Part shown: one piece after another, positions 39,028 through 60,926 of the stretch | Layout: every line of letters begins with the position of its first letter | How positions within the stretch are numbered: the stretch's first letter is position 1 | DNA from: an uncultured Alphaproteobacteria bacterium | Lineage (GTDB): Bacteria; Pseudomonadota; Alphaproteobacteria; ATCC43930; CGMCC-115725 | Direction of reading: 5' to 3' | NCBI GenBank assembly: GCA_963698995.1 | Contig: CAVOTD010000081.1 | Span: 18,583 to 82,582 of the forward strand | DNA length: 64,000 nt | Notes under the pieces: generated by a model | Databases searched by the model: none | The model's input: only the letters and a program-made list of their open reading frames with translations | What the model was told of the DNA's origin: nothing | Made by a program: the position numbers and the translations under genes

Positions 39028-40999
<1,972 letters not shown>

Positions 41000-49088: not shown

Positions 49089-49547
49089 TCACAAGGGCGT
49101 CGCCAGCAGGCTGGGCACGGCGAAGCTATCGAGCAGGATCAGCTTGTCGCGGATCTTCAGGTCGTGACCGACCGGCTGGAGCCGGTCGCGATAGAGACCG
49201 GTCGCAAACAGCCGGGTTTCGCCTTCCTGATCGCTCTGGTAGACCGCAAAGGGCGCCTCGACCGTGCTTCCGTCGTCCAGAATACGCGGTAGGCCGATGA
49301 CATGGCGATCGGTATGGATGTTGTACTTGTTGGCCTCACGCAAAGCGCGAATTCGATCCTCGAGCATCGCGCGGCTGTCGCAAAAGACCAGTGCCGCCGG
49401 CAAACCGCGGTCATAATTCTCCCGCGGCACGATATGGTAGGTGCATTCTTCAGCAAAGAGCTCGAGCCATTCGTCGAATTTCGCGGCATCGATCAAGCCG
49501 CCATATTCGGCCAGCAGGCGGTAGACGGCCAGCGGATCGGCAATCAT
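49089..49547 (-). CDS. Aromatic-ring-hydroxylating dioxygenase beta subunit (NTF2/SnoaL-like fold)
   Basis: 152 aa. YRLLAEYGGLIDAAKFDEWLELFAEECTYHIVPRENYD. Overlaps the alpha-subunit end by 4 nt. Confidence 0.8.
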   Translation of the reverse strand: MIADPLAVYRLLAEYGGLIDAAKFDEWLELFAEECTYHIVPRENYDRGLPAALVFCDSRAMLEDRIRALREANKYNIHTDRHVIGLPRILDDGSTVEAPFAVYQSDQEGETRLFATGLYRDRLQPVGHDLKIRDKLILLDSFAVPSLLATPL

Positions 49548-50805
49548 CGCACCGCCCCCTCCGGCTCAATGCCCAACAGTTCGGCGTAATACGACCAGAA
49601 GCCGCGCAACGGCACGTCATTGACCCGGTAATCGCGGTCGGAGATCACGCCGCCACCGCCGAGTTCGATGACAGTGCTGCGTTCGAGTTCGGGCCGGGAG
49701 GCGCGGTGGGCGATCTCGATTGCCTCGCCGTCCTCCATCGAGACGAGGCCGGCCGGGCCGACGAGGTTGGCCTGGCGCAGGCGGTGCAGGGTCATCTCGG
49801 GCGAATCGTCCTGGTAGCCGAGCATCGTCTGGAACACCTCGACCTCGTCGACGCCGCGCGGCCGGATTTGGCGCACCGCCAGGCTGTTGCTGATCTGCAC
49901 AAAGACCGCCGACGGGAAGACCGAGGTGATCGCAATGTTCAGCTTGTCGGCGCGCTCGCGATGAAAGGCGACGAGCGTCCGGCGCCTTCAGCGACAGGAA
50001 GTCGTTGCGCACCCGGGCGCCGGCATAAGCCTGATGAGCGAATTCGTCGGTGTCGCTCTCGGCTTCCGCCCAGGTAATGTTGTGGCGATGGCGTGCGTCC
50101 ATCTTGACGCCACCCACCTGCGTCGACCGGTCGAGCCCGAAGGTGACAAGAAACTCGTGCAACAGGCTGGCATGGTAATTGTCGCGAGTATTTTCGGCAT
50201 AAAGCTTCCAATTTCCGCGGATTCTTTGGCGATTGTAGCCGAGCACCCGGACCGGCCGGTCGAAGAAGCGCCGCAGCTGCGCCAGGATCGGCGGCCCGAG
50301 ATAATCTTCGAGCGGCTCGGCATCCTCGTCGAGTGTGCCGAATAACGCGCCGTTGATGTTCCCGACCCGCAACGGGCGCAGGCCGTGCGCCAGCATGTCG
50401 AAAGCCGGCATCGAGCCCGCCTTTCCCGCGGATGCCGCGGCGAAACGGGATCGCGGTCAAGGCCCCGTCGAGCCCGTAGCACCATTGATGATAAAGGCAG
50501 ATGTGCTCGCTGGCGTTGCCGGACAGTTCGCGCCGCACCAGGGCGCCGCGATGGGCACAGCGGTTGACAAAAGCCTTGACCGCGCCGGTCTTGTCGCGAT
50601 TGAAGACGACCGGCGTCTCGCCGATCTGGGTCGCCCGAAAATCTCCGGGATTGGGGATTTCGCTGTCGAGGCCGAGAAAGCTCCATACCGGCCCGTAGAA
50701 GATCCGCTCCTGCTCGCGGCGATAGATGTCGGCGTCGTGATAGAGGCGGTACGGCACTCGGCTGTAATCGAGGTTCGGCCAAATCGCAGCTGTCAACATC
50801 GCCAT
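49544..50805 (-). pseudogene. Rieske [2Fe-2S] ring-hydroxylating oxygenase alpha subunit with two frameshifts
   Basis: Rieske motif CAHRGALV..CLYHQWCY in ORF 49939..50880. The catalytic domain continues in 49617..50411 (NYHASLLHEF) and 49544..49900. Frame breaks lie near 50412 and 49975. Confidence 0.8.
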
Positions 50806-50851
50806 TTCCGCCCCAAAAAGAGACCCGAGCGGGTTCGGGCTGCGCGCCGCG

Positions 50852-51223
50852 ATGCTAGCGCGCGAAGGAAGTCGCGACAACGTTGCGGCCGCCGAGCATC
50901 CGAAACACGATTGCGGCCCGCCGCACCGGCGCGCTTCTGCAGCACCAGAAGAGGAGAGCTTCGGCGGATACGCTACTCGTCAAGAGCAAGACGTGGCACG
51001 AGCCTCCGGTGAATACAGATCACCTGCAGTAGCACAGGAGTTCCAGCGCGAGCATCCGTGCCCTTCGACCGGCAGTCCGACAGGTGCTTGTCCCGGCTAT
51101 ATCAAAGATCACATCATACCGCTCGCCTGCGGCGGCCCCGATGCGGTTTCAAATCTCCAATGGCAGACCACCGAAGACGCGAAGGCCAAGGACCGCTGGG
51201 AACGCAAGACATGCGGTCGGTAA
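50852..51223 (+). CDS. Small HNH-motif protein (N-terminus uncertain, possibly decayed)
   Basis: C-terminal CPGYIKDHIIPLACGGPDAVSNLQWQTTEDAKAKDRWE fits an HNH nuclease core. No signal peptide or clear start context. Confidence 0.5.
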   Translation: MLAREGSRDNVAAAEHPKHDCGPPHRRASAAPEEESFGGYATRQEQDVARASGEYRSPAVAQEFQREHPCPSTGSPTGACPGYIKDHIIPLACGGPDAVSNLQWQTTEDAKAKDRWERKTCGR

Positions 51224-51599
51224 TCGCCCTTGAGGCGGGGGACAATCGGAGTTAACCGCGTAAAATTTTACGGGTTAGCAACCCTTTCCGCCCAAAGCGG
51301 GCGGCGTGCCAGATCAACACACGCCCACATTGCAAGACATGGCCATCGAGCGCGATTGGTGGCGGCAGGACGCCGGCGCGCATTACCGCGAGCTGGCGAT
51401 GTGGCTGCGCGAGGGGTGGATTCCGGGCATTCCCGATTTGCCCGGTCTGTGATACCCATGCTGTCAAAGCAGTCATTGACCGGCTGAAGCCACGACACCC
51501 GACACTGCGTTCATTTAAGCGCTGCCGCTGGTAGCTCACCGAGCAGAGTTCTATGGTCATCCACGAGGGGGGCCGCTCCTCAGAGCCGAGGATCACCGC

Positions 51600-52305
51600 A
51601 TGGACGTAGCGGCGTGGCTGAAGGGCTTGGGCTTTGAGCGTTATGTGTCCGCGTTCTGCGACAACGATGTCGATGCCGAGGTCCTGCCGAAGCTGACGGC
51701 CGACGACCTGATCGGCCTGGGCGTGACCTCTATCGGCCATCGCCGCAAGCTGCTCGCCGCGATTGCCGCGCTCGGTGCCGCAGTGCCGGCCTCCGCGGTG
51801 ACGGCGGCATCCCGCGATGCACCGGCACAAGCCGATGCCGAACGCCGTCAGCTCACGGTGATGTTCTGCGATCTGGTCGGGTCGACCGCGCTCGCCGCAC
51901 GCCTCGATCCCGAGGATCTGCGCCGAGGTCATTGCCGCCTATCACCGCGCGGTCACCCAAGTCGTCGCCGGGCTCGATGGTTTCGTCGCCAAGTACACGG
52001 GCGATGGCGTTCTGGTTTGCTTCGGCTACCCGTAAGCGCATGAGGACGACGCCGAGCGGGCTGTGCGGGCAGGGCTGGGCTTAATCGACGCGGTCGGTGG
52101 CCTCGATGTCAAATCCGCCCAGCTCCAAGCGCGCGTCGGCATTGCCACTGGGCTGGTGGTCGTCGGCGATCTGATCGGCGCAGGCTCGGCGCAGGAACAA
52201 TCGGTTGTCGGTGATGCGCCGAACCTCGCTGCTCGTTTACAAGCCCTGGCCTAGCCGGATGCCGTCGTCATCGCCGCAAGCACGCGCCGGCTGGTCGGCG
52301 ATCTC
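51600..52305 (+). pseudogene. SAM-domain / class-III adenylate-guanylate cyclase gene remnant: 1 frameshift, 2 in-frame stops, 3' truncated
   Basis: [42 protein letters not shown] (SAM), then [32 protein letters not shown][18 protein letters not shown]..VGDAPNLAARLQALA-stop. Frameshift near 51922, TAA at 52033-52035, TAG at 52252-52254. Homology ends around 52305. Confidence 0.8.
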
Positions 52306-52571
52306 TTACCTAATGAGAGATGACCGATGAGAGCGCATCAGGTCATGCTCGGATCGCATCGAGCAGAGTGGTCGGTCGCCGGCTAACGGCAAGGCCAGTG
52401 CTGCACCGCAGTAAAGTGGCCCAGCACCGCAGCGAGCGCAGCGATAATTATTTACCGCATCTTGCGGATCAGCCAGAGTGCTTTGACGAGAGGATTTGGA
52501 GAAGGTTCGTTCCGAGTCGATGCCAAAACCCGACAGTGGCGCTCGCTGGTGCCGGAATCCGGGGAAGTGGG

Positions 52572-53318
52572 ATGAAGACGGTTTTCATCAGTTACCGAAG
52601 GGAGGACGTTGCTGGCGAGGCTAGAGCCTTGTTCAACGATCTTGTAACGCGACTGGGTAAAGACTGCGTATTCATGGATGTGGATAGCATCTCTCTAGGC
52701 CGCGACTTTCGCGGCGTGCTGCAGGAAATGCTGATTTCCTGTGATCTCATGCTGGTGCTAATCGGCAAAGACTGGGCTGATATTAAGGACGAAAGGGGAC
52801 GAGCCCGCCTAGAAGATCCCCATGATTTCGTCCGTTTAGAGATCGAAGCGGCACTCAAGCGAGACATAGTTGTCACGCCCGTCCTGGTGCAAGGGGCGCA
52901 TATGCCCACCCCGGAGCAGTTACCGTCAGAAATCAGCGACCTAGTTTATCGCAATGGGTTTGAGCTCAGTCATAATCGCTGGGAGTCGGACATCCGAGAA
53001 ATGGTTCGACGGCTAGCTATTGATGGTCCGGATAGAAGTGTAAATAGCTGGAACGCGCGCATGAGCTCCATCTGGACTTTTGTTCAAAAACCCAGCAACC
53101 GACGACTGTTGCCCTGGCTAGGTGGAGGCGGAGCGGTTGCCGCTGCCGGTATTTGGGCAGTAATAACCTATGTTTGGCCGGCGCATGAAACTCCCACGAC
53201 CGAATGTATTCAACAAGGTGTGAAGATCGGCGGTGGGGTCTCCGGCTCGACGATCAGTAACTCGGTCTCTGGCGGCACGGTGACCGCAGGGCCATGCGTA
53301 GACACCAGCAAGAAGTAG
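52572..53318 (+). CDS. TIR-domain protein with one C-terminal transmembrane helix and a Gly/Ser-rich tail
   Basis: Start MKTVFISYRREDVAGEARALFNDL (ATG 52572). LMLVLIGKDWADI..DPHDFVRLEIEAALKRDIVVTPVLV is a TIR_2-type pattern with a candidate catalytic Glu. TM helix LLPWLGGGGAVAAAGIWAVITYVW. About 53-55% GC. Confidence 0.85.
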   Translation: MKTVFISYRREDVAGEARALFNDLVTRLGKDCVFMDVDSISLGRDFRGVLQEMLISCDLMLVLIGKDWADIKDERGRARLEDPHDFVRLEIEAALKRDIVVTPVLVQGAHMPTPEQLPSEISDLVYRNGFELSHNRWESDIREMVRRLAIDGPDRSVNSWNARMSSIWTFVQKPSNRRLLPWLGGGGAVAAAGIWAVITYVWPAHETPTTECIQQGVKIGGGVSGSTISNSVSGGTVTAGPCVDTSKK

Positions 53319-55078
53319 GCGCTGCATTTCCGGCGCTCGCCTTTTGGGCGATCGCGGCAGCGGCTGGACTGCCGCTGGCGTCTGTCAAAGCCGAGAGCAC
53401 CAGCGGTACTGCAATCGAAAGCATCGTCATCGAGGGGTCAGTCAGCGGCGGCAGCACCATAAACAATACGATCAATAAGCAAGACCCGGCGGTGTTGGCG
53501 GCGATGACTAAGACATTCGCCGATCAAATGGCTGCTACCATCGAGGCTAAAGCGCAAGCGGAGGGGAAAGCCGCGGAGTTGGCGACGAAATTAGGGTTCA
53601 CCTCGGCCGCCGTAGTCGAATTTTTTAAAATTCTTGGCGAGCGGGATGTGCCGGAGGAGAAAGTTCCGGCACGGCTCATCGAGGTTGCGATTCATTTCGC
53701 CCAGACGCGAGACGCGCTCGTTACGCTCGCACCCGATGATCCGCATACAGCCGAGCTGGCCCGCTCGGCGGAAGAGGCTCTCAACAGCGGACGGCTGACC
53801 GAGGCGGATATTTTCCTCGACCAAGCAAGGGAGGGCGAGTTCGCCGCCCTTCGGCAGGCGCGCGAGCTCAAGCAGAAGGCTCAGGAAGCCGAGGATCGCC
53901 ATGCTCTTAATGCGGCGAAACTCCTCGTCGGTCGAGGCAACATTAAACTGACACAATTGCGTTATGTGGAGGCCGCAGAGCACTTCAAGCAAGCTACGGT
54001 GCTGGTGCCGTCGGGGCACCCAGATGAGTTGGCGGATTACCTTCACCGTCAAGCGGATGCGCTCTATCGTCAGGGTGACGAGCAGGGCGATAACGCTGCC
54101 TTGAGGCAGTCAATCGAAACCTGGCATCTGGTCTTGGAGCAACGCACGCGCGAGCGGGTGCCGCTCGAATGGGCGATGACGCAGAACAACCTCGGCAACG
54201 CGCTCGAGGCCCTGGGCGAGCGGGAGAGCGGGACGGCGCGTCTGGAGGAGGCGGTTGCGGCATATCGTGCAGCGCTGGGGGAACACTCGCGCGAGCGGGT
54301 GCGGCTCGAGTGGGCGATGACGCAGAACAACCTCGGCAACGCGCTCGAGGCCCTGGGCGAGCGGGAGAGCAGGACGGCGCGTCTGGAGGAGGCGGTTGCG
54401 GCATATCGTGCAGCGCTGGAGGAGAGGACGCGTGAGCAGGTGCCGCTCGAGTGGGCGATGACGCAGAACAACCTCGGCAACGCGCTCCGGGCCCTGGGCG
54501 AGCGGGAGAGCGGGACCGCGCGTCTGGAGGAGGCGGTTGCGGCATATCGTGCAGCGCTGGAGGAATACCCGCGTGAGCGGGTGCCGCTCAAATGGGCCAA
54601 GGCGCAAATGAACCTTGGCGCTGCGCTTGAGACGCTGGGTGAGCACGAGAACGGAACGACGCATCTGGAGGAGGCGGTTGCGGCGTATCGTGCAGCGCTG
54701 GAGGAATACCCGCGCGAGCGGGTGCCGCTCAAGTGGGCCATGACCCAGCACAACCTCGGCAACGCGCTCGAGGCGCTGGGCGAGCGGGAGAGCGGGACCG
54801 CGCGTCTGGGGGAGGCGGTTGCGGCCTACCACTTGTCGCTCGAAGAGAGGACGCGCGAGCGGGTGCCAATCGACTGGGCAGTGACACAATACGCCCTCGG
54901 CATCGCCCTCCAGGCGCTTGGCGACCGAGAGAGCGGGATGGCGGGGCTGGAGGCGCTAAAGGCGGCGGCGGCGGCCTGGGAAGCGTGTCTTACAATCGCC
55001 CCGCCCGAGTGGGTGCAATCTGTCAAAACCCGCCGCGACGAGACGCAGGCCGAGATTGGACGGCGGTCAGCGAAATAG
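53294..55078 (+). CDS. Tetratricopeptide-repeat protein with N-terminal signal-peptide/TM-like segment and helical linker
   Basis: 594 aa. N-terminus AAFPALAFWAIAAAAGLPLASVKA. Six 47-aa units of type RERVPLEWAMTQNNLGNALEALGERESGTARLEEAVAAYRAAL. Overlaps the TIR ORF by 25 nt in another frame. Confidence 0.85.
   Translation: MRRHQQEVGAAFPALAFWAIAAAAGLPLASVKAESTSGTAIESIVIEGSVSGGSTINNTINKQDPAVLAAMTKTFADQMAATIEAKAQAEGKAAELATKLGFTSAAVVEFFKILGERDVPEEKVPARLIEVAIHFAQTRDALVTLAPDDPHTAELARSAEEALNSGRLTEADIFLDQAREGEFAALRQARELKQKAQEAEDRHALNAAKLLVGRGNIKLTQLRYVEAAEHFKQATVLVPSGHPDELADYLHRQADALYRQGDEQGDNAALRQSIETWHLVLEQRTRERVPLEWAMTQNNLGNALEALGERESGTARLEEAVAAYRAALGEHSRERVRLEWAMTQNNLGNALEALGERESRTARLEEAVAAYRAALEERTREQVPLEWAMTQNNLGNALRALGERESGTARLEEAVAAYRAALEEYPRERVPLKWAKAQMNLGAALETLGEHENGTTHLEEAVAAYRAALEEYPRERVPLKWAMTQHNLGNALEALGERESGTARLGEAVAAYHLSLEERTRERVPIDWAVTQYALGIALQALGDRESGMAGLEALKAAAAAWEACLTIAPPEWVQSVKTRRDETQAEIGRRSAK
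54149..54994 (+). repeat. Six in-frame tandem repeats of 141 bp (47 aa) within the TPR gene
   Basis: Unit starts at 54149, 54290, 54431, 54572, 54713 and 54854. Long identical DNA stretches recur, e.g. gaggaggcggttgcggcatatcgtgcagcgctgg. Confidence 0.9.
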
Positions 55079-55120
55079 TCTCTCGTCAGGCAACTCTCGG
55101 CGGGTCCCGGAGTGAGGATA

Positions 55121-55723
55121 ATGCGGCGCAAGTTGGTCGGCGTGGTGTTCGTCATTCTTGGCCTGATGCTTTGGGCCGGTGGAGGGGTCGCAACACCAGC
55201 GGGCACTGTCGCCGTGGTGAGTGGATCATGTACCGATCACGGTCATGTGCTGAAAGCCGGCGATGCGGTGCAGATCGGTGATACGCTCGAGGTGCCGGTA
55301 GGCAGCCATCTGAAGTTGCAGATGGTCGACGGATCGGTGATTTCGGTTGCTGCGGGCAGCAGCATTACAGTAGAAAAGTATAACATTGCCAGCTCCGGTC
55401 GAGATGTGAAGCTCTCGTTGACGCAAGGGCTGCTGCGAGCACAGGTCAGTTCAGTTACAGGTCCCTCCACCTTCGACGTATCGACCGCGGCCGGCACCGC
55501 GTCCGTAGGCTCGGCTTCTGCCGACTGGTTCATTAGGACGCAAACTGGCTTGGCTCAGGCCGGGGTATTGGCTGGCAAGATCGATTTGACGAGTACTGCG
55601 ACGGGCGAATCAGTTTCGATCCCCGCTCACTGGGGTACGCGCCTCGAGGCGGGGCGTAGCCCCGTGCCGCCTCGGAACTGGACTCAGGCGGAGTTCGAAG
55701 AGGTCACTCATAGCACCCAATGA
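55121..55723 (+). CDS. FecR-domain protein (secreted/periplasmic sensor-like), copy 1
   Basis: MRRKLVGVVFVILGLMLWAGGGVATPAGTV (signal peptide), then GDAVQIGDTLEVPVGSHLKLQMVDGSVISVAAGSSITV, a FecR-type beta-rich pattern. Confidence 0.75.
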   Translation: MRRKLVGVVFVILGLMLWAGGGVATPAGTVAVVSGSCTDHGHVLKAGDAVQIGDTLEVPVGSHLKLQMVDGSVISVAAGSSITVEKYNIASSGRDVKLSLTQGLLRAQVSSVTGPSTFDVSTAAGTASVGSASADWFIRTQTGLAQAGVLAGKIDLTSTATGESVSIPAHWGTRLEAGRSPVPPRNWTQAEFEEVTHSTQ

Positions 55724-55878
55724 TGTGACAATCTGCCAGTGAAAAAGCATTCGCCGACCGGCAAGCAGACCTTTATTATTTCAGTCCGCATTCCCCGGAT
55801 TAAGCTGCGATTTTGAGCGAACCGGCGACGATTTAGGGTTAGAATTCATTATGTTGTGGGGGGACAACTGGGGCGGCG

Positions 55879-56868
55879 ATGGCGGACCCGACGGGTGAAG
55901 CAGATAAGCGCGCTCTGAGGCTCGATTTCGACCGTCGTCTGCTGCTGCAGTTCCGCGGCTCCACGATCACCTCCGATGCCGTGCTGCTGGCCTACCGCGA
56001 GCTGGATGATGCGCTGAGCCTGACCGGGTTCCGATATGCTGGCTGACGCGCGCACCGGCAAGAATGGTCGCCATCGGTTGGCCGGCTTGCTGCCTCAATC
56101 GGTGTTCGGGCGGCTGCCCGGCTACGAGACGTGAACGACGCCGACTGGCTGTGTCGCGATCCGGCGATGCGCTGGATGGTCGGCGACCGGGCGATCACCG
56201 GATCTGCCGCTTCGGCCAGCCAGATGGGCCGGTTCGAGACGAAGTGGCTGAGCCGCCCCGAGAACCTTGCCGCCCTCGCCGATCTGCCCGGCCAGTGGAT
56301 CGATAAGGTGGACCGGCGGCGACCGCCGAGGACCATTGTGCTCGACATGGATTCGAGCGAGAGCCCGACCTATGGCGAGCAGGAGGGCAGTGCCTACAAC
56401 GGGCATTTCGGTTGCACCTGCTATCACCCACTGTTCGTGTTCAACCAGCTCGGTGATGTCGAGCGGTGTGCGCTAAGGCCGGGCAATGTGCACAGCGCCG
56501 ATGGTTGGCGCGCGGTGCTAGAGCCAGTGGTCGCCCGCTACCGGAACACGGTGAAGCGTCTCTATTTTCGAGGCGACGCGGCCTTCGCCAACCCCGAGAT
56601 CTACGAGTTCCTCGAAGCCGAGGGAATGGGTTATGCGATCCGGCTGCCGGCCAACAGCATCCTGCAGAGCAAGATCGGACACCTGCTCAAGCGCCCGGTT
56701 GGACGACCGCCGCATGAGCTGCGACGGTAACTCGCCAGCTTCAGCTATCAGGCGCAGAGCTGGCGGAAGCCGAGGCGTGTCGTAGCCAAGGTCGAGTGGC
56801 ACCCCAACGAGCTTTATCCGCGCGTCGGGTTCATCGTAACCAATCTGGCGCGGCCGGCCGAAACGTTT
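55879..56868 (+). mobile_element. IS1380-family transposase gene remnant (frameshifted, internal stop, 3' truncated)
   Basis: [46 protein letters not shown].., then in another frame NDADWLCRDPAMRWMVG..DMDSSESPTYGEQEGSAYNGHFGCTCYHPLFVFNQ..VHSADGW... A stop follows at 56728, and the sequence continues ..SFSYQAQSWRKPRRVVAKVEWHPNELYPRVGFIVTNL. It ends at an AT-rich junction at about 56868. Confidence 0.75.
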
Positions 56869-56949
56869 GCAACATTATACATCTCAGCTGGATTATTAAG
56901 TCTAAATCTTTATAAATGCATTTCTAGACCGGTCGCTGGGGAGGATGGC

Positions 56950-57914
56950 ATGAAAAACAAATCAACCCATCACCGAAACTGTTGCAACCATCGGTATCGG
57001 CTTTCGAAAATTAGTAACATTGTCACGCTGGCGATGATCGGTCTGACCCCGACGGCGGTTAACGCCTACACAGCCGCTGGCGATCGCAACTTTCCAGGCC
57101 AGCTCGTTTTGCCGCAGATCGGCCCGACAGACGCTTTATGGGTTCCCATCACGACGCAGCCATTCGAGGCCATGAGATCCGAACGATAAGACCCGCCAAA
57201 CAGATTTTACGCGCGACCTACAGCAAATTGATCACGGAACAGTTTGGGATCCAGCTCGGGGATCGGCTTACCCACCTCGACCGTCTTCACGCCTCATCAA
57301 TTACTGGAGCCCAGAATTTTCACGCGCTGCTGCAATACGAGACTATACTCGACCCATCGCGCGAGTTTCTGCTGTCAGTCCAGGTTGAACACGAGTTTGG
57401 CGGGACCGGAGATCAGGCAGTTGGTGCCAAGAAACACGGCGCGACAACGCCGGGCGTAACCTTCGGCAAAGGATTGGGCGATCTGCCGATCGGCTATTGG
57501 CGCCCACTCGCGATTACCGGCTTTGCCGGATATCAAGCCGCCGAAGGGGCGCGGACTAGCTTTTTCCAGGCTGGCGTCTCGATCCAATATTCGATACCGT
57601 ATCTCATGTCGAAGGTCGCGAACGTCGACATACCCCCATTCGTCCGCGGAATGACCCCTATCACTGAAGTGTTTTTCACCACTCCGGTGAGTCGCATCTC
57701 CGGCCAAGGCACTAATACAACCCTGGTGGTCGCCCCAGGCGTCAGTTACTCCCGGGGCAAGGGATGGGAGTTGGGCATCGAGGCTATGATACCCACTACT
57801 AGGGCTACCGGGCATGGTATCGGTGTCATTGCCCAGCTGTTGATACAGCTTGACTACCTGTTGCCCGAAAGCCTGCTCGGCCGGCCGATATTCGTTCCAA
57901 CCGAGCTTCCCTGA
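56950..57914 (+). pseudogene. Putative outer-membrane beta-barrel protein (MetA-pathway/transporter-like), one frameshift
   Basis: The ORF 56950..57189 carries the leader and AAGDRNFPGQLVLP. It continues in ORF 57138..57914 with alternating beta-strand-like segments and a C-terminal aromatic-rich end. The family call is tentative. Confidence 0.4.
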
Positions 57915-58004
57915 GAAAGCCCAGCATTGCGGCGGCATCGATCGGTTATATATAAGCTGCTCGGCGGGGTGCGAGAGCCGGTCGGCCGCGGGCCTTCGAC
58001 GATA

Positions 58005-58616
58005 ATGGAGCGCAAATTGGTTGGCGTGCTATTCACGATATTTGGTTTGATATTTTGGGCCGGCGCAGCGGCTGCAACGCCAGCAGGCACGGTCGTCGGG
58101 GTGAGCGGATCATGTACCGATCACGGACGTGCGCTGAACCGCGGCGATGTGGTGCAGATCGGCGATACGCTCGATGTGCCGGCAGGTGGCAATCTAAAGC
58201 TGCAGATGGCCGACGGGTCGGTGATTTCGGTTGCGCCGAATAGCAGTATGACCGTCGCCGGCTATAGCATCGATGGCTCCGGTCGCGATGTGCGGCTTTC
58301 GTTGGCGCGGGGCGCGCTGCGAGCACAGGTCACTTCCGTAACAGGTCCCTCGACTTTCGAGGTATCGACCGCGGCCGGCACCGCATCGGTAGGTTCCGCT
58401 TCCGCCGATTGGTTCATCAAGGCGCAGCCTGACGCGGCTCAAGTCGGGGTGCTGGCTGGCACCATCGATTTGACGAGTACTGAGACAGCGCAGTCAGTTT
58501 CGATCCCCGCTCGCTGGGGAACGCACCTCGAAACCGGGCTCGACCCCGTGCTGCCTCGGGTGTGGGCCGAAAGGGAGTTCAATACAGTCATTCGTCTCAC
58601 TGGAGCTTACCCGTAG
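58005..58616 (+). CDS. FecR-domain protein, copy 2 (paralogue of 55121..55723)
   Basis: MERKLVGVLFTIFGLIFWAGAAAATPAGTVVGVSGSCTDHGRAL... Colinear with copy 1 over the whole length, roughly 80% DNA identity by eye. Confidence 0.75.
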   Translation: MERKLVGVLFTIFGLIFWAGAAAATPAGTVVGVSGSCTDHGRALNRGDVVQIGDTLDVPAGGNLKLQMADGSVISVAPNSSMTVAGYSIDGSGRDVRLSLARGALRAQVTSVTGPSTFEVSTAAGTASVGSASADWFIKAQPDAAQVGVLAGTIDLTSTETAQSVSIPARWGTHLETGLDPVLPRVWAEREFNTVIRLTGAYP

Positions 58617-59010
58617 TCTGGGGGGCGTATTTGGCGGGCACCAGCCGCGCCCGAAGCTCACCGCGGCAGTGCAGTAATGTATCGATTGGTGGCGCTGCCA
58701 GCTCAATTCCCAAAATTGGGACGAGCCTCAGTCAGCTTACCGTGCGCACGTTTCCGGGGGCTTAGAGTCCAACGAGATTTCGCCGCGGAGCAACATTGCC
58801 GTGAAGCTCATAACATCCCCCTTTTTGTAGCTCGGCGAACCCACTGATTGGGGCGGACTGCGCATGGGCCAATTGGCATCTGCTGCGGGGTGCGCACCTC
58901 ATCGCGCATGAGGAAAAGTCCGATAAGGCCGCGACAGCGAGCGACCGCTTTGGGTCGACAGCGGCTATGGGCCACGGGCACTAAGCGTTAGATTTCGACC
59001 ACTAGGTAGT

Positions 59011-60926
59011 GTCAGACCCGACTTGAACAGTTGGTGAGGGGGCGGATTTAGTAACTGATTGATTTGTTTCGGATGGGTAGGCGAATTTCTAGAGTACGTC
59101 CAATAGCGTAGTGGAACATTTTCAGTAAAACTCGCGTTTTTACTTGATGTTGAGGGCGATTTAGCGGACAACGATTCGATGTTTCTCCGCGAGAAGTCGG
59201 CGCGAGGCCATACCTACCTCTACCTCGTCGAGAACGAGCGCGAGGGCGGCCGCATCCGCCAGCGGATTATCCGCGCGCTCGGCCGCAAGGACGTGCTGCT
59301 GGCGAACGGCGAACTGGATCGTCTGGCCGCCTCGCTGGTGCGGCATTGCGATCGCGCGGTCATCCTGTCCAACATGGAGGCGGGTCGCATCGCCTGCACG
59401 CGCATTGGTGGGCCGCTCTTGTTCGGGCGGCTCTGGGAGCGCCTCGGCATTGCCGAGGTGCTGGGCGAGCTGCTCGCGAGCCGCGGTTTTGAGTTTGCCG
59501 TCGAGCGCGCCGTCTTCGCCAGCGTCCTGCATCGGCTGTTCGTGTCGGGCTCTGATCGCAGCTGCGAGAAATGGATGACCGATTACCGGATCGAGGGGAT
59601 CGACGGGCTGCAGCTGCACCACCTCTACCGGGCAATGGCGTGGCTCGGCGAGGAGATCGCCCCCGCCGGCGCGCTGGCGCCGCGCTGCGTCAAGGACCTG
59701 ATCGAGGAGCGTCTGTTCGAGCGCCGCCGCGATCTGTTTAGCGATCTGTCGCTGGTCTTCATGGACACGACCAGTTTGTCGTTTTACGGCGCCGGCGGCG
59801 ACAGCCTGGGGGCTTATGGCCACTCCAAGGACCATCGCGCCGACCTGAAGCAGATGATCCTGGCCGTCGTCATCGACGGCGACGGCCGGCCGATCTGCAC
59901 CGAGATGCTGCCGGGCAACACCGCCGATGCCACCGTGCTGTTGCCGGTCGTCGACCGTCTGCGCGAGCGCTTTCATATCGGCCGGGTCTGCGTCGTCGCC
60001 GACCGCGGCATGATCTCGGTGGCCACAATTGCAGCGCTGGAGGAGCGCAAGCTGGAATACATTCTCGGCGCTCGCGAGCGCAGCAGCGCCGTCGTCCGCC
60101 GGCTTGTGCTCGAGGACGAAGCGCCGCTGACGCCACTGCTCGTCGAGCGGGTGCGAGGCGAGACCCAGCTCTTCGTCAAAGAGGTCAAGGTCGGCGCGGC
60201 GCGCTACGTCCTCTGCCGCAACGAGGCCGAAGCGGAACGGGAGCGCAATCAGCGGCAGGCGATCATCGCGGGGCTCGCCAAGCAGCTCGCGCGCGGGGAC
60301 AAGGCGCTGATTGGCAATTCCGCCTACCGGCGTTATCTGCGCCGGACGCCGAGCGCGAGCGGCAAGCCCGGCCCCGCCTTCGAGATCGATCCCGGCAAGC
60401 TGGCCGAGGAGGCGCGCTACGACGGCCTCTTCGCATTGCGCACGAACGCCCGGATCACGCCATTGCAAGCCGTGTTGCGCTACCGCGATCTGCTGCAAGT
60501 CGAAGACCTATTCCGTCGCGCCAAGGCGATCCTCAGGACCCGCCCGATCTATCATTCCTCAGATGCCGCCATCCGCGGCCATGTGTTTTGCTCGTTCCTT
60601 GCCCTAATGCTGCAAAAGGAACTGACTGACCTGTGCCAGCGCCACGGCCTCGTCATTGAATGGGCCGACCTGCTGCGCGAACTCGACCGCCTCCAGGAAG
60701 CCACGATTGAGAAGGACGGCAAGCGCATTACCACCCGCACCGCCGTCGCCGGCCAGGTCGGCAGCGTCTTCCAGGCCGCTGGCATCGCACTGCCGCCTAA
60801 TCTGCACGAACGCGCCGCCTGACCACCCCGTCGGCACCCGGCTGTAGTGCTAACACCGAAAATCGCTGTCGTAATCTATTGAGATAAGGGCCCTTTTTCT
60901 AACGTACTGTTGAAGTTAGGTCAGAC
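59011..60926 (+). mobile_element. IS1634-family (IS4-related) insertion sequence, apparently intact, about 1.9 kb
   Basis: Imperfect terminal inverted repeats: 59011-59039 gtcagacccgacttgaacagttggtgagg versus the reverse complement of 60898-60926 (21/29 matches). Encloses a single 547-aa transposase ORF. No target duplication recognised. Confidence 0.7.
59179..60822 (+). CDS. IS1634-family DDE transposase
   Basis: MFLREKSARGHTYLYLVENEREGGRIRQRIIRALG..FMDTTSLSFYG..VVADRGMIS..YRDLLQVEDLFRRAKAILRTRPIYH. Family assignment is by pattern memory. Confidence 0.8.
   Translation: MFLREKSARGHTYLYLVENEREGGRIRQRIIRALGRKDVLLANGELDRLAASLVRHCDRAVILSNMEAGRIACTRIGGPLLFGRLWERLGIAEVLGELLASRGFEFAVERAVFASVLHRLFVSGSDRSCEKWMTDYRIEGIDGLQLHHLYRAMAWLGEEIAPAGALAPRCVKDLIEERLFERRRDLFSDLSLVFMDTTSLSFYGAGGDSLGAYGHSKDHRADLKQMILAVVIDGDGRPICTEMLPGNTADATVLLPVVDRLRERFHIGRVCVVADRGMISVATIAALEERKLEYILGARERSSAVVRRLVLEDEAPLTPLLVERVRGETQLFVKEVKVGAARYVLCRNEAEAERERNQRQAIIAGLAKQLARGDKALIGNSAYRRYLRRTPSASGKPGPAFEIDPGKLAEEARYDGLFALRTNARITPLQAVLRYRDLLQVEDLFRRAKAILRTRPIYHSSDAAIRGHVFCSFLALMLQKELTDLCQRHGLVIEWADLLRELDRLQEATIEKDGKRITTRTAVAGQVGSVFQAAGIALPPNLHERAA

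Follow-up and report, generated by a model that had tools for sequence, protein, structure and literature searches.

A candidate motif-coupled pair of a membrane-anchored TIR protein and an exported TPR receptor in an alphaproteobacterial locus

The TIR protein and the TPR receptor

We analysed a 64,000-nucleotide (nt) stretch of contig CAVOTD010000081.1 from an uncultured Alphaproteobacteria bacterium, hereafter called the window, and numbered all positions from its first letter. On its forward strand, a gene for a TIR-domain protein overlaps a gene for a protein of tetratricopeptide (TPR) repeats, which we call the receptor. The TIR open reading frame (ORF; 52572-53318, with an alternative longer ORF of 332 amino acids (aa) from 52320) encodes a TIR domain, predicted to be cytoplasmic (residues 1-150; 52572..53021), and ends in an 85-aa module of a transmembrane (TM) helix and a tail (53061..53318; TM helix at ~53106-53177). 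The 594-aa receptor (53294..55078) opens with a leader (53294-53392), which is followed by a short motif (53414-53479) of the same kind as one in the tail, a helical linker and a TPR superhelix, with six tandem 141-nt (47-aa) TPR units (53994..54998) that form a direct-repeat family of 67-92% identity. Judged from related loci, this two-gene pair, comprising a TM-tail gene (with or without a TIR domain) and a TPR receptor gene, is the robust unit. Our favoured explanation, which we hold tentatively, is a motif-coupled effector/receptor pair, in which the exported TPR receptor would cluster the membrane-anchored TIR NADase (an NAD+-cleaving enzyme) through motif pairing.

A preliminary description of this DNA, made without database searches, had proposed a three-gene module of TIR, TPR and FecR genes. 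Its domain assignments were borne out by profile searches. The TIR_2 domain matched the Pfam family (E = 1.6e-9, residues 4-141, 38.7 bits against a cut-off of 28) and was followed by one hydrophobic helix and a Gly/Ser tail; the second ORF has a leader ending in VKA and matched TPR_10 (E = 2.9e-15), with six 141-nt repeats as the six 47-aa units; and the third ORF encodes a leader and a FecR-type domain (Pfam FecR, E = 4.2e-9). Its proposal of a fixed triad fared less well, as described below.

The closest relative of the TIR family profile in the PDB was the TIR domain of SARM1 (E = 1.4e-12). In this alignment, Glu90 in DFVRLEIEAAL, a stretch in which a candidate catalytic Glu had been noted earlier, coincided with the Glu of SARM1 DWVHKEIVTAL, which we take to be the catalytic E642 (human SARM1 numbering). 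Glu90 was invariant among 16 TIR homologues. An AlphaFold2 (AF2) model of the domain had predicted local distance difference test (pLDDT) values above 90 across residues 1-150, and the top Foldseek match of that model was again SARM1 (E = 2.8e-9, target-normalised template modelling score 0.82-0.85). Because SARM1 is the best match in both sequence and fold, and because Glu90 falls on the presumed E642, the TIR domain is a credible SARM1-like NAD+-cleaving enzyme by prediction.

The TIR clade is very large (3563 matches). The best matches were ~75-80% identical within the domain and carried diverse C-terminal parts, including FGE-sulfatase, Sel1, PASTA, Yip1 and LprI. Relatives with ~80% identity also occur in clusters of SLATT_1, TIR and FGE-sulfatase genes at two loci (L002, 2483-9609; L008, 4883-9600), of which the first also contains a gene for a 1550-aa nSTAND1-WD40 protein and the second a gene for a TPR-S protein. 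Gene sets of the SLATT/TIR/FGE-sulfatase type have been linked earlier to conflict systems (Kaur et al.).

From an internal Met (MSSIWTF, 53061) onwards, the TIR ORF encodes its final 85 aa, a hydrophobic helix and then the Gly/Ser-rich tail. This module is also found as a free-standing protein of ~85 aa in more than 40 clusters (46 matches, nearly all of 81-98 aa). A precomputed Pfam domain was present in none of the 46 matches, and most TM-tail partners lack a TIR domain. At three loci (L037-L039), the free-standing TM-tail gene and the receptor gene share 25 nt, the same overlap as in the window (53294/53318). The TIR-tail fusion of the window type itself forms a cluster of 64 members. On an 11.3-kb contig from JGI 3300047160, a pair of 85-aa anchor and receptor adjoins genes for Cas1, a family-B DNA polymerase (a casposon-like arrangement) and a McrB_N-domain protein.

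In the free-standing proteins, the 15 residues before the anchor helix contained a mean of 2.9 Lys plus Arg and no acidic residues, and the 15 residues after it a mean of 0.5 Lys plus Arg and about two acidic residues. Exactly two Cys residues were present in the tails of 40 of the 43 free-standing homologues. This charge bias of the flanks and the Cys pair argue for an anchor with its N-terminus inside and its C-terminus outside, so that the tail would lie in the periplasm with a disulfide-type Cys pair.

The N-terminal ~280 residues of the receptor define a family of ~114 clusters, whose genes are usually preceded by a TM-tail gene. Leader-like N-termini, with a charged n-region, a hydrophobic core and a small-x-small cleavage site, were found in 52 of the 66 assessable receptor homologues, and the receptor is therefore probably exported by the Sec pathway. 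Its AF2 model (mean pLDDT 88) showed residues 1-49 as disordered and, starting at residue 53, one long, all-helical TPR superhelix. Foldseek searches with this model returned generic TPR scaffolds only (consensus TPR, LGN/Pins and KLC). Domain searches of the receptor gave TPR families alone, with no NACHT or NB-ARC NTPase.

Receptor homologues P0121-P0123 are 94% identical to the window receptor over the N-terminal 287 aa, yet they are shorter (500 aa versus 594 aa). The difference would fit two missing 47-aa units and suggests that TPR units are gained and lost rapidly. The preliminary description had named, as one of the findings that would undo it, that the TPR ORF is merely the leftover C-terminus of the neighbouring cyclase-STAND gene. 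We rejected this origin: the ORF has a leader of its own and an N-terminal module with ~114 homologues, usually located behind a TM-tail gene.

The shared motif and variant architectures

The tail of the TIR protein contains a Cys-bracketed motif, C-IQQGVKIGGGVSGSTISNSVSGGTVTAGP-C (53205..53297), that resembles the first residues of the receptor after its leader, IESIVIEGSVSGGSTINNTINK. We built a hidden Markov model from 40 tail motifs and scored it on 114 receptor homologues and 1140 shuffles. Scores above the best shuffle were obtained for 71 of the 114 receptors, reaching 23.2 bits versus 4.8 bits, with the matches almost always at receptor residues ~40-60. The receptor motif is N-terminal only once a leader of ~33 aa has been removed. 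A second motif class occurs in the tails of L033 and L034 (SGDCSIAANGTASGNTVNCG) and is matched in the N-termini of their cognate receptors (AGPCSIAATGNASNNTTTCNFG); the receptor motif of L019 belongs to the same class. That the L033/L034 tail motif is matched in its own receptors indicates that the motif classes of the two partners vary together.

Both motif sets are 23-29 aa long, rich in Gly, Asn, Ser, Thr, Val and Ile, and depleted, almost to absence, in Leu, Lys, Arg and Pro. The tail motifs contain 22% Gly, 14% Ser, 13% Val, 2.5% Lys and 0.5% Leu; the receptor motifs contain 14.5% Ile, 14% Asn and 0.3% Leu, against 10% Leu in the whole proteins. Gln is not enriched. We also considered N-glycosylation sequons as a feature of the motifs and discarded the idea, since such sites do not recur consistently. 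In layout and composition, the motifs match what has been published as characteristic of bacterial amyloid signalling sequences (BASS). Judging by the TM helix and Cys pair on one side and the leader on the other, both motifs apparently lie outside the cytoplasm. The motif shared by tail and receptor N-terminus, which had escaped the preliminary description, is the most specific mechanistic lead at the locus.

Scanning genomes with the N-terminal module of the receptor yielded 28 loci, all in metagenome-derived assemblies and nearly all titled Alphaproteobacteria (Stellaceae, Acetobacteraceae, Lichenihabitans, Methylocapsa/Methylocella, Bradyrhizobium and Sphingomonas). A TM-tail gene precedes the receptor gene in many of these loci, and a TIR domain is present in some only. 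In L007, a TIR domain of another subfamily (48% identity) sits on a near-identical tail; TIR domains have been joined to the TM-tail unit more than once. In L034, a TIR-TM-spacer-tail protein is accompanied by a separate, leader-bearing TPR protein; in L030, a single ORF fuses a TIR domain straight to the helical linker and TPR repeats, with no TM helix. Short TM-tail proteins without a TIR domain are encoded in L012, L013 and L033, and the anchor and the TPR protein are fused in a single ORF in L018, L023, L024 and L029. Further all-in-one relatives, in L055 and L067, are DUF4062-TPR proteins. In their various configurations, TIR and TPR were linked at six loci (L001, L007, L030, L034, L041 and L072). 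Taken together, such split, fused and effector-less forms strongly support, on comparative grounds, the view that the anchor with its tail, the receptor and the TIR domain act together.

The same variants bear on where such a pairing would take place. In a cytoplasmic system of the BASS or Bab/Agp type, the hydrophobic segments would be membrane-inserting helices like those of Bell or Bab, and templating would occur in the cytoplasm. Indeed, Bab has an N-terminal hydrophobic helix and moves to the membrane when activated (bioRxiv 10.1101/2024.11.07.622273), the L030 protein and the receptors of classes B and C (described below) look cytoplasmic, and the anchor of L029 is more positive on its C-terminal side. 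However, most receptor homologues have leader features (52/66), the flanks of the anchors obey the positive-inside rule (2.9 versus 0.5 Lys plus Arg) with acidic C-terminal flanks, two Cys residues recur in 40 of 43 tails, and the helix in the window is internal, following a 150-aa TIR domain. We consider such a system quite improbable here.

The many pairs that lack an enzymatic effector also fit a non-immune envelope function, in which the small membrane protein would tether a TPR scaffold in the periplasm (Tol-Pal/CpoB-like, or an assembly factor) and the TIR domain would be a regulatory or NAD-linked signalling addition, as in a Toll-like receptor, instead of a suicide enzyme. The TPR region has a weak match to the NCBIfam tol-pal YbgF family (E = 2e-4, far below the cut-off), and metabolic genes surround the locus in the window. 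Against this stand the repeated recruitment of TIR or TIR-like NADase domains to the effector position; the TPR units, which are highly alike, and the 94%-identical homologues that vary in length, as in immune receptors; the patchy occurrence of the locus, with no fixed position and with insertion sequence (IS) or casposon-like neighbours in places; and the TIR relatives that adjoin SLATT, nSTAND-WD40 and FGE-sulfatase genes. We give this function little credence.

The FecR/OMP-like block and the surroundings of the cassette

The third gene of the proposed triad, FecR1 (55112..55723, alternative start 55121), starts 33 nt after the TPR stop codon on the same strand and encodes a leader-bearing protein. 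Within 10 kb of the receptor gene, FecR and outer-membrane-protein-like (OMP-like) homologues were missing from all 28 genome loci; thus, the pair does not need either gene. We then scanned metagenomes with FecR1 and its paralogue FecR2 as seeds and obtained 45 loci, in which a conserved block is ordered as FecR, a leader-bearing OMP-like gene (~320 aa) and a second FecR. A locus was assessable if 300 nt or more of sequence preceded its first FecR copy; in 20 of the 22 assessable loci, a TPR gene ended at most 300 nt upstream of that copy. This linkage overturned the idea, taken from the 28 FecR-less genome loci, that FecR is an accidental neighbour. In the six loci that we read, the spacing between TPR and FecR genes ranged from a slight overlap to ~70 nt.

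The TPR genes before the FecR block have their repeat units and C-terminus in common (54-69% identity) and differ in their 5' ends. Class A comprises the window-type TIR and TPR genes (L041, L072 and L001). Class B comprises a 170-aa protein and a leaderless 650-aa TPR protein, whose N-termini share a motif (YQMGNVGSGARVAQGENISWVEG and YLVGDVGAGATVLQGEHLSIGF). In class C, DUF4062 and the TPR array form one protein. The ~170-aa family (L052, 918-1424; L077, 263-790; L084, 2-283) had no Pfam match; its members have an N-terminal Gly-rich motif and a helical remainder, and their genes are always directly upstream of those for leaderless TPR receptors that open with the same motif.

In the window, the block continues with the OMP-like gene (56947..57914, forward strand, leader-bearing, ~320 aa) and FecR2 (57927..58616, forward strand, likely start 58005; Pfam FecR, E = 6.5e-12), whose position after the OMP-like gene is conserved. 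FecR1 and FecR2 are 70% identical as proteins and 78% identical as DNA over the first 300 nt. Both FecR proteins have the PF04773 domain after the leader and nothing else, with no TM or anti-sigma part, and the ORFs scanned around the locus included no sigma factor gene. The OMP-like family has 635 representatives; its protein had no match in Pfam (including the TonB receptor), NCBIfam or PDB sequences, and a weak Phenol_MetA_deg match was seen in 1 of 40 relatives. At three loci (L071, L075 and L076), OMP-like, FecR and OMP-like genes alternate, which indicates that the FecR/OMP-like unit can be tandemly repeated.

The block closes with a conserved non-coding stretch of ~340 nt (58617..58958, forward strand), which is 77-98% identical, with indels, in L041-43 and L048-51 (classes A and B) and contains no convincing ORF; a search for RNA elements in it gave no Rfam match at E values up to 0.1. 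Across loci, ~300-450 nt are conserved after FecR2, beyond which the flanks differ even between 98%-identical loci, so that the block behaves as a unit. Given the linkage of FecR/OMP-like/FecR to the TPR gene, the module reaches ~58958. The block appears to be a co-oriented, tightly spaced and conserved but facultative accessory envelope module, which the pair can do without.

These data bear directly on the fixed triad at 52306-55723 put forward in the preliminary description. An obligatory trans-envelope system of TIR, TPR and FecR would have the periplasmic FecR, with the OMP-like protein, sense a signal and control the TIR domain through the TPR protein. The co-oriented FecR1 gene just behind the TPR gene, the TPR gene directly upstream in 20 of 22 loci of the FecR subfamily with at least three effector classes, the differing flanks, which suggest that the block travels as a unit, and the predicted extracytoplasmic location of all the window partners but the TIR domain would all fit this scheme. 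By contrast, all 28 genome loci lack FecR and OMP-like genes within 10 kb of the receptor, in two loci (L007 and L009) the pair is followed by unrelated genes, the FecR-linked TPR proteins of classes B and C are leaderless and presumably cytoplasmic, and FecR lacks both a TM helix and an anti-sigma part, with no sigma factor gene close by. Together with the TIR-less state of most TM-tail partners, this makes an obligatory triad unlikely. Since the block also accompanies cytoplasmic TPR proteins with DUF4062 or a 170-aa partner, direct control of the TIR domain by FecR is not the simplest reading, and general physical contact between TPR and FecR proteins is doubtful. What stands of the earlier proposal is the envelope link, in that a membrane-anchored TIR domain and exported TPR and FecR proteins fit topology heuristics, and the linkage of the gene families (TIR with TPR at six loci, FecR with TPR at 20 of 22), with FecR being part of a longer block.

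An IS remnant of ~1.07 kb (55791..56862) lies between FecR1 and the OMP-like gene in the window. It contains a DDE_Tnp_1_4 fragment (56131-56730; Pfam E = 2e-53, profile positions 76-266 of 435) and is absent from L041-L043 and L001, the near-identical L001 and L041 among them. The preliminary description had noted IS remnants after the module and had missed that this one is an insertion inside a larger block with the OMP-like gene and FecR2. The OMP-like gene in the window is broken by two 1-nt insertions, placed near 57177 and 57212 by DNA alignment, into ORFs of 79 aa and 258 aa. A tblastn search with the intact L048 OMP-like protein found two frames in the window and a single frame in L041-43, L047, L050, L052, L055 and L067; the OMP-like gene of L001 has another, different 1-nt insertion. 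These frameshifts are either real decay or long-read assembly errors.

To the left, the cassette is bounded by a SAM-adenylate/guanylate cyclase pseudogene (51600..52310, forward strand). One part matched Pfam SAM_1 (51600-52043, E = 1.4e-16) and a further fragment matched Guanylate_cyc (52063-52254, E = 7e-5); an in-frame TAG lies at 52252-52254, and the cyclase frame and homology run on to ~52310 and are then truncated. The junction between cyclase and cassette is identical in L001 and L041. The truncated pseudogene before the module and the IS remnant after it had both been read correctly in the preliminary description, as had the lower GC content of the TIR part (0.54-0.55 over 52400-53200, versus 0.64-0.67 at 51400-52200 and 0.67-0.71 in the TPR repeats).

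It is therefore fair to ask whether the window holds a decaying remnant, in which the TIR-anchor fusion and the adjacency of three genes arose incidentally through deletions and IS activity and the locus no longer functions in this genome. The truncated cyclase with its in-frame stop, the IS remnant within the block, the further IS at 59179-60822 and the two insertions in the OMP-like gene are what such a history would leave. However, the ORFs of the TIR protein, the receptor, FecR1 and FecR2 are all intact, the TIR-tail fusion recurs in a cluster of 64 members, the same architecture occurs without the IS in L001, L041 and L072, and an independent TIR fusion is found in L007. The ratio of nonsynonymous to synonymous substitution rates (dN/dS) of the TIR gene between the window and L001 was ~0.3, a value from just 14 differences; at 3-14 differences per gene, the divergence of the two loci is too small for a firm test of selection. 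We regard a mere remnant as very unlikely.

The larger ORFs around the locus, in Pfam scans, encode metabolic proteins, GroEL and an IS. As noted earlier, the usual partners of TIR domains are missing nearby: the ORFs scanned within ~10 kb contained no gene for a SIR2/SLOG protein, a CD-NTase, an Argonaute or a STAND protein. PADLOC-DB v2 gave only two weak matches, to ThsB1 (E = 8.8e-6, partial) and PDC-S06 (E = 6e-4); the locus matched none of its system models, and the FecR and OMP-like proteins had no match at all in it. The window TPR protein and the 332-aa TIR protein had no exact match in the contig index. A scan for promoters and terminators was uninformative, with no promoter-like sites and with terminator-like sites at the level of shuffles, and terminal inverted repeats around the cassette were limited to pairs of 16-28 nt that we judged to be at chance level. 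A composite transposon between two 547-aa ORFs was rejected: ORF 39028-40671 encodes GroEL and no transposase, and no DNA repeat was found. The other of 547 aa, at 59179-60822, is an intact DDE_Tnp_1 transposase gene (IS) that starts ~220 nt past the end of the L001 homology (58958). Upstream of the cassette, on the reverse strand (49617-50880), the alpha subunit of a Rieske-type ring-hydroxylating dioxygenase appears to be split into two overlapping ORFs (49939-50880 and 49617-50411), which suggests a frameshift, and its beta subunit is intact at 49089-49547. A small ORF just upstream of the cyclase pseudogene (50852-51223) has an HNH-like C-terminus (CPGYIKDHIIPLACGG...NLQWQ; Pfam HNH_5, weak, E = 0.003).

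A possible mechanism and known systems

In the motif-coupled pair that we tentatively favour, gene 1 would provide a cytoplasmic SARM1-like TIR NADase with a single-pass anchor and a 45-aa periplasmic tail that carries a ~29-aa motif between two Cys residues, and gene 2 would provide an exported TPR superhelix whose mature N-terminus bears the same kind of motif. The TPR array would bind a ligand from the envelope or an invader and self-associate. The N-terminal motifs of the receptors would then pair with the tail motifs, or template them as an amyloid-like beta-sheet, and the TM helices, rich in small residues, would cluster. With the TIR domains thus gathered on the cytoplasmic face, NAD+ hydrolase sites would assemble, NAD+ would fall and growth would stop, giving a defence of the abortive-infection type. 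In the commoner, TIR-less version, the 85-aa membrane protein itself may be the effector. A bolder form of the model makes prion-like templating at the periplasmic face a transmembrane immune signal: the exported receptor would template the tail, the TIR domains would cluster and destroy NAD+, and the FecR/OMP-like block would serve as an outer-envelope input module. We think this elaboration improbable.

Several observations weigh against the motif-coupled pair. The amyloid-like pairing and the periplasmic location are its least secure steps. The AF2 model of the tail has pLDDT values below 50, and a loop closed by a disulfide could hinder amyloid stacking. The topology calls rest on hydropathy, charge and AXA heuristics, and the helical-TPR module is found as well in proteins that are clearly cytoplasmic (L030; classes B and C), so that its compartment is not fixed; as cytoplasmic receptors exist, contact between TPR and FecR proteins cannot be general. 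Most pairs are TIR-less, and a non-immune role of the base pair is thus possible. PADLOC recognises no system at the locus, and the window copy, lying amid pseudogenes and IS remnants, may be inactive. What the sequences show are the domain identities, the motif shared by tail and receptor, the gene linkage and the variant architectures; the export topology, the pairing of the motifs, the NADase activity and a role in defence are inferred from them.

Motif-coupled pairs, TIR NADases and TPR receptors are all known, and the cases described are all cytoplasmic. In the BASS pairs of filamentous bacteria, an effector ends and the adjacent NLR-like receptor begins with a motif of ~25 aa, and the two ORFs overlap; the effectors include TIR2 domains, all-in-one fusions occur, the TPR units are unusually alike, and the composition is rich in Gly, Asn, Gln, Val and Ile and poor in Lys, Pro and Leu (Dyrka et al., bioRxiv 10.1101/2020.01.06.895854). 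The same study reports that NLR-like architectures are rare in Proteobacteria or missing from them. The pair described here resembles BASS pairs in motif position, overlapping ORFs, composition, TIR effector, all-in-one relatives and highly similar TPR units. It differs in having no NB-ARC or NACHT domain, in coming from metagenome-assembled genomes of soil Alphaproteobacteria rather than from Actinobacteria or Cyanobacteria, and in motifs that are apparently extracytoplasmic.

Bab/Agp (BASS11) from E. coli, a pair validated by experiment, is similar in layout. The 109-aa Bab has a hydrophobic helix and a C-terminal motif and is activated by the NTPase-less receptor Agp, which has an N-terminal motif and TPR repeats; the pair gives abortive infection, and BASS11 has also been reported with TIR domains (bioRxiv 10.1101/2024.11.07.622273). 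Both arrangements have adjacent genes, a small helix protein with a C-terminal motif of ~25 aa, and a receptor with an N-terminal motif and TPR repeats but no STAND NTPase, a likeness that we draw from layout and description and not from motif sequence. In contrast to the pair described here, Agp carries GreA/B-C and PIN domains and Bab/Agp acts in the cytoplasm; the window has a Sec-type leader on the receptor, a true TM helix with a Cys-bracketed tail on its partner, and an effector that is or includes a TIR domain. In Bacillus cereus, the BcTir gene stands beside the TPR gene BcTpr, and the two provide phage defence with NAD+ depletion (bioRxiv 10.1101/2023.05.26.542521). As far as the accessible part of its description goes, with which our comparison was made, this system is cytoplasmic, its NADase lies in an N-terminal glycosidase-like domain of BcTpr, and no leader, TM helix or shared motif is mentioned.

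Among TIR systems, SARM1 is the best match in sequence and fold, with the catalytic Glu aligned, although here there is no ARM domain, a SAM domain occurs just in the unrelated upstream pseudogene, and regulation would proceed through the anchor and a partner receptor. Thoeris shares the TIR_2-type domain, with weak matches to ThsB1 (PADLOC, E = 8.8e-6) and ThcB4 (NCBIfam, 39.9 bits); however, the ThcB4 cut-off of 220 bits is far above that score, and no ThsA gene (SIR2/SLOG or Macro) was found among the neighbouring ORFs scanned. DUF4062 is a TIR-like NADase domain used in phage defence by Swarozyc (bioRxiv 10.64898/2026.05.01.722283). In L055 and L067 it takes the effector position, fused to a TPR array of the same type before FecR/OMP-like/FecR; by contrast, the window has a classical TIR_2 domain, and Swarozyc proteins carry another auxiliary domain. 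The block recalls FecA/FecR/FecI in placing a FecR (PF04773) protein beside an outer-membrane-type protein, but its FecR has no anti-sigma domain or TM helix, there is no extracytoplasmic function (ECF) sigma gene, and the OMP-like protein of ~320 aa is not a TonB-dependent transducer.

We did not find the present arrangement, namely a leader and a TM helix flanking the motif pair, the 85-aa anchor family and the link to FecR/OMP-like/FecR, in the literature that we searched. Two groups of genes absent from PADLOC-DB v2 are thus exposed: a widespread, uncharacterised pair of an 85-aa membrane protein and a probably exported TPR protein, and a FecR/OMP-like/FecR block consistently found behind TPR receptors with NADase-type effectors (TIR or DUF4062). 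Given the leader, the TM helix and the disulfide-type tail, the coupling step would take place outside the cytoplasm, with the TM helix as the wire to the TIR enzyme. By architectural analogy only, the combination of a repeat-built ectodomain with one TM helix and a TIR domain in the cytoplasm recalls Toll-like receptors, although here the ectodomain is a separate polypeptide of TPR and not leucine-rich repeats, and the TIR domain is N-terminal and predicted to be an enzyme rather than a scaffold. If this model is true, the pair would represent a new route for a signal across the bacterial membrane and a bacterial counterpart of the Toll-like ectodomain-TM-TIR layout.

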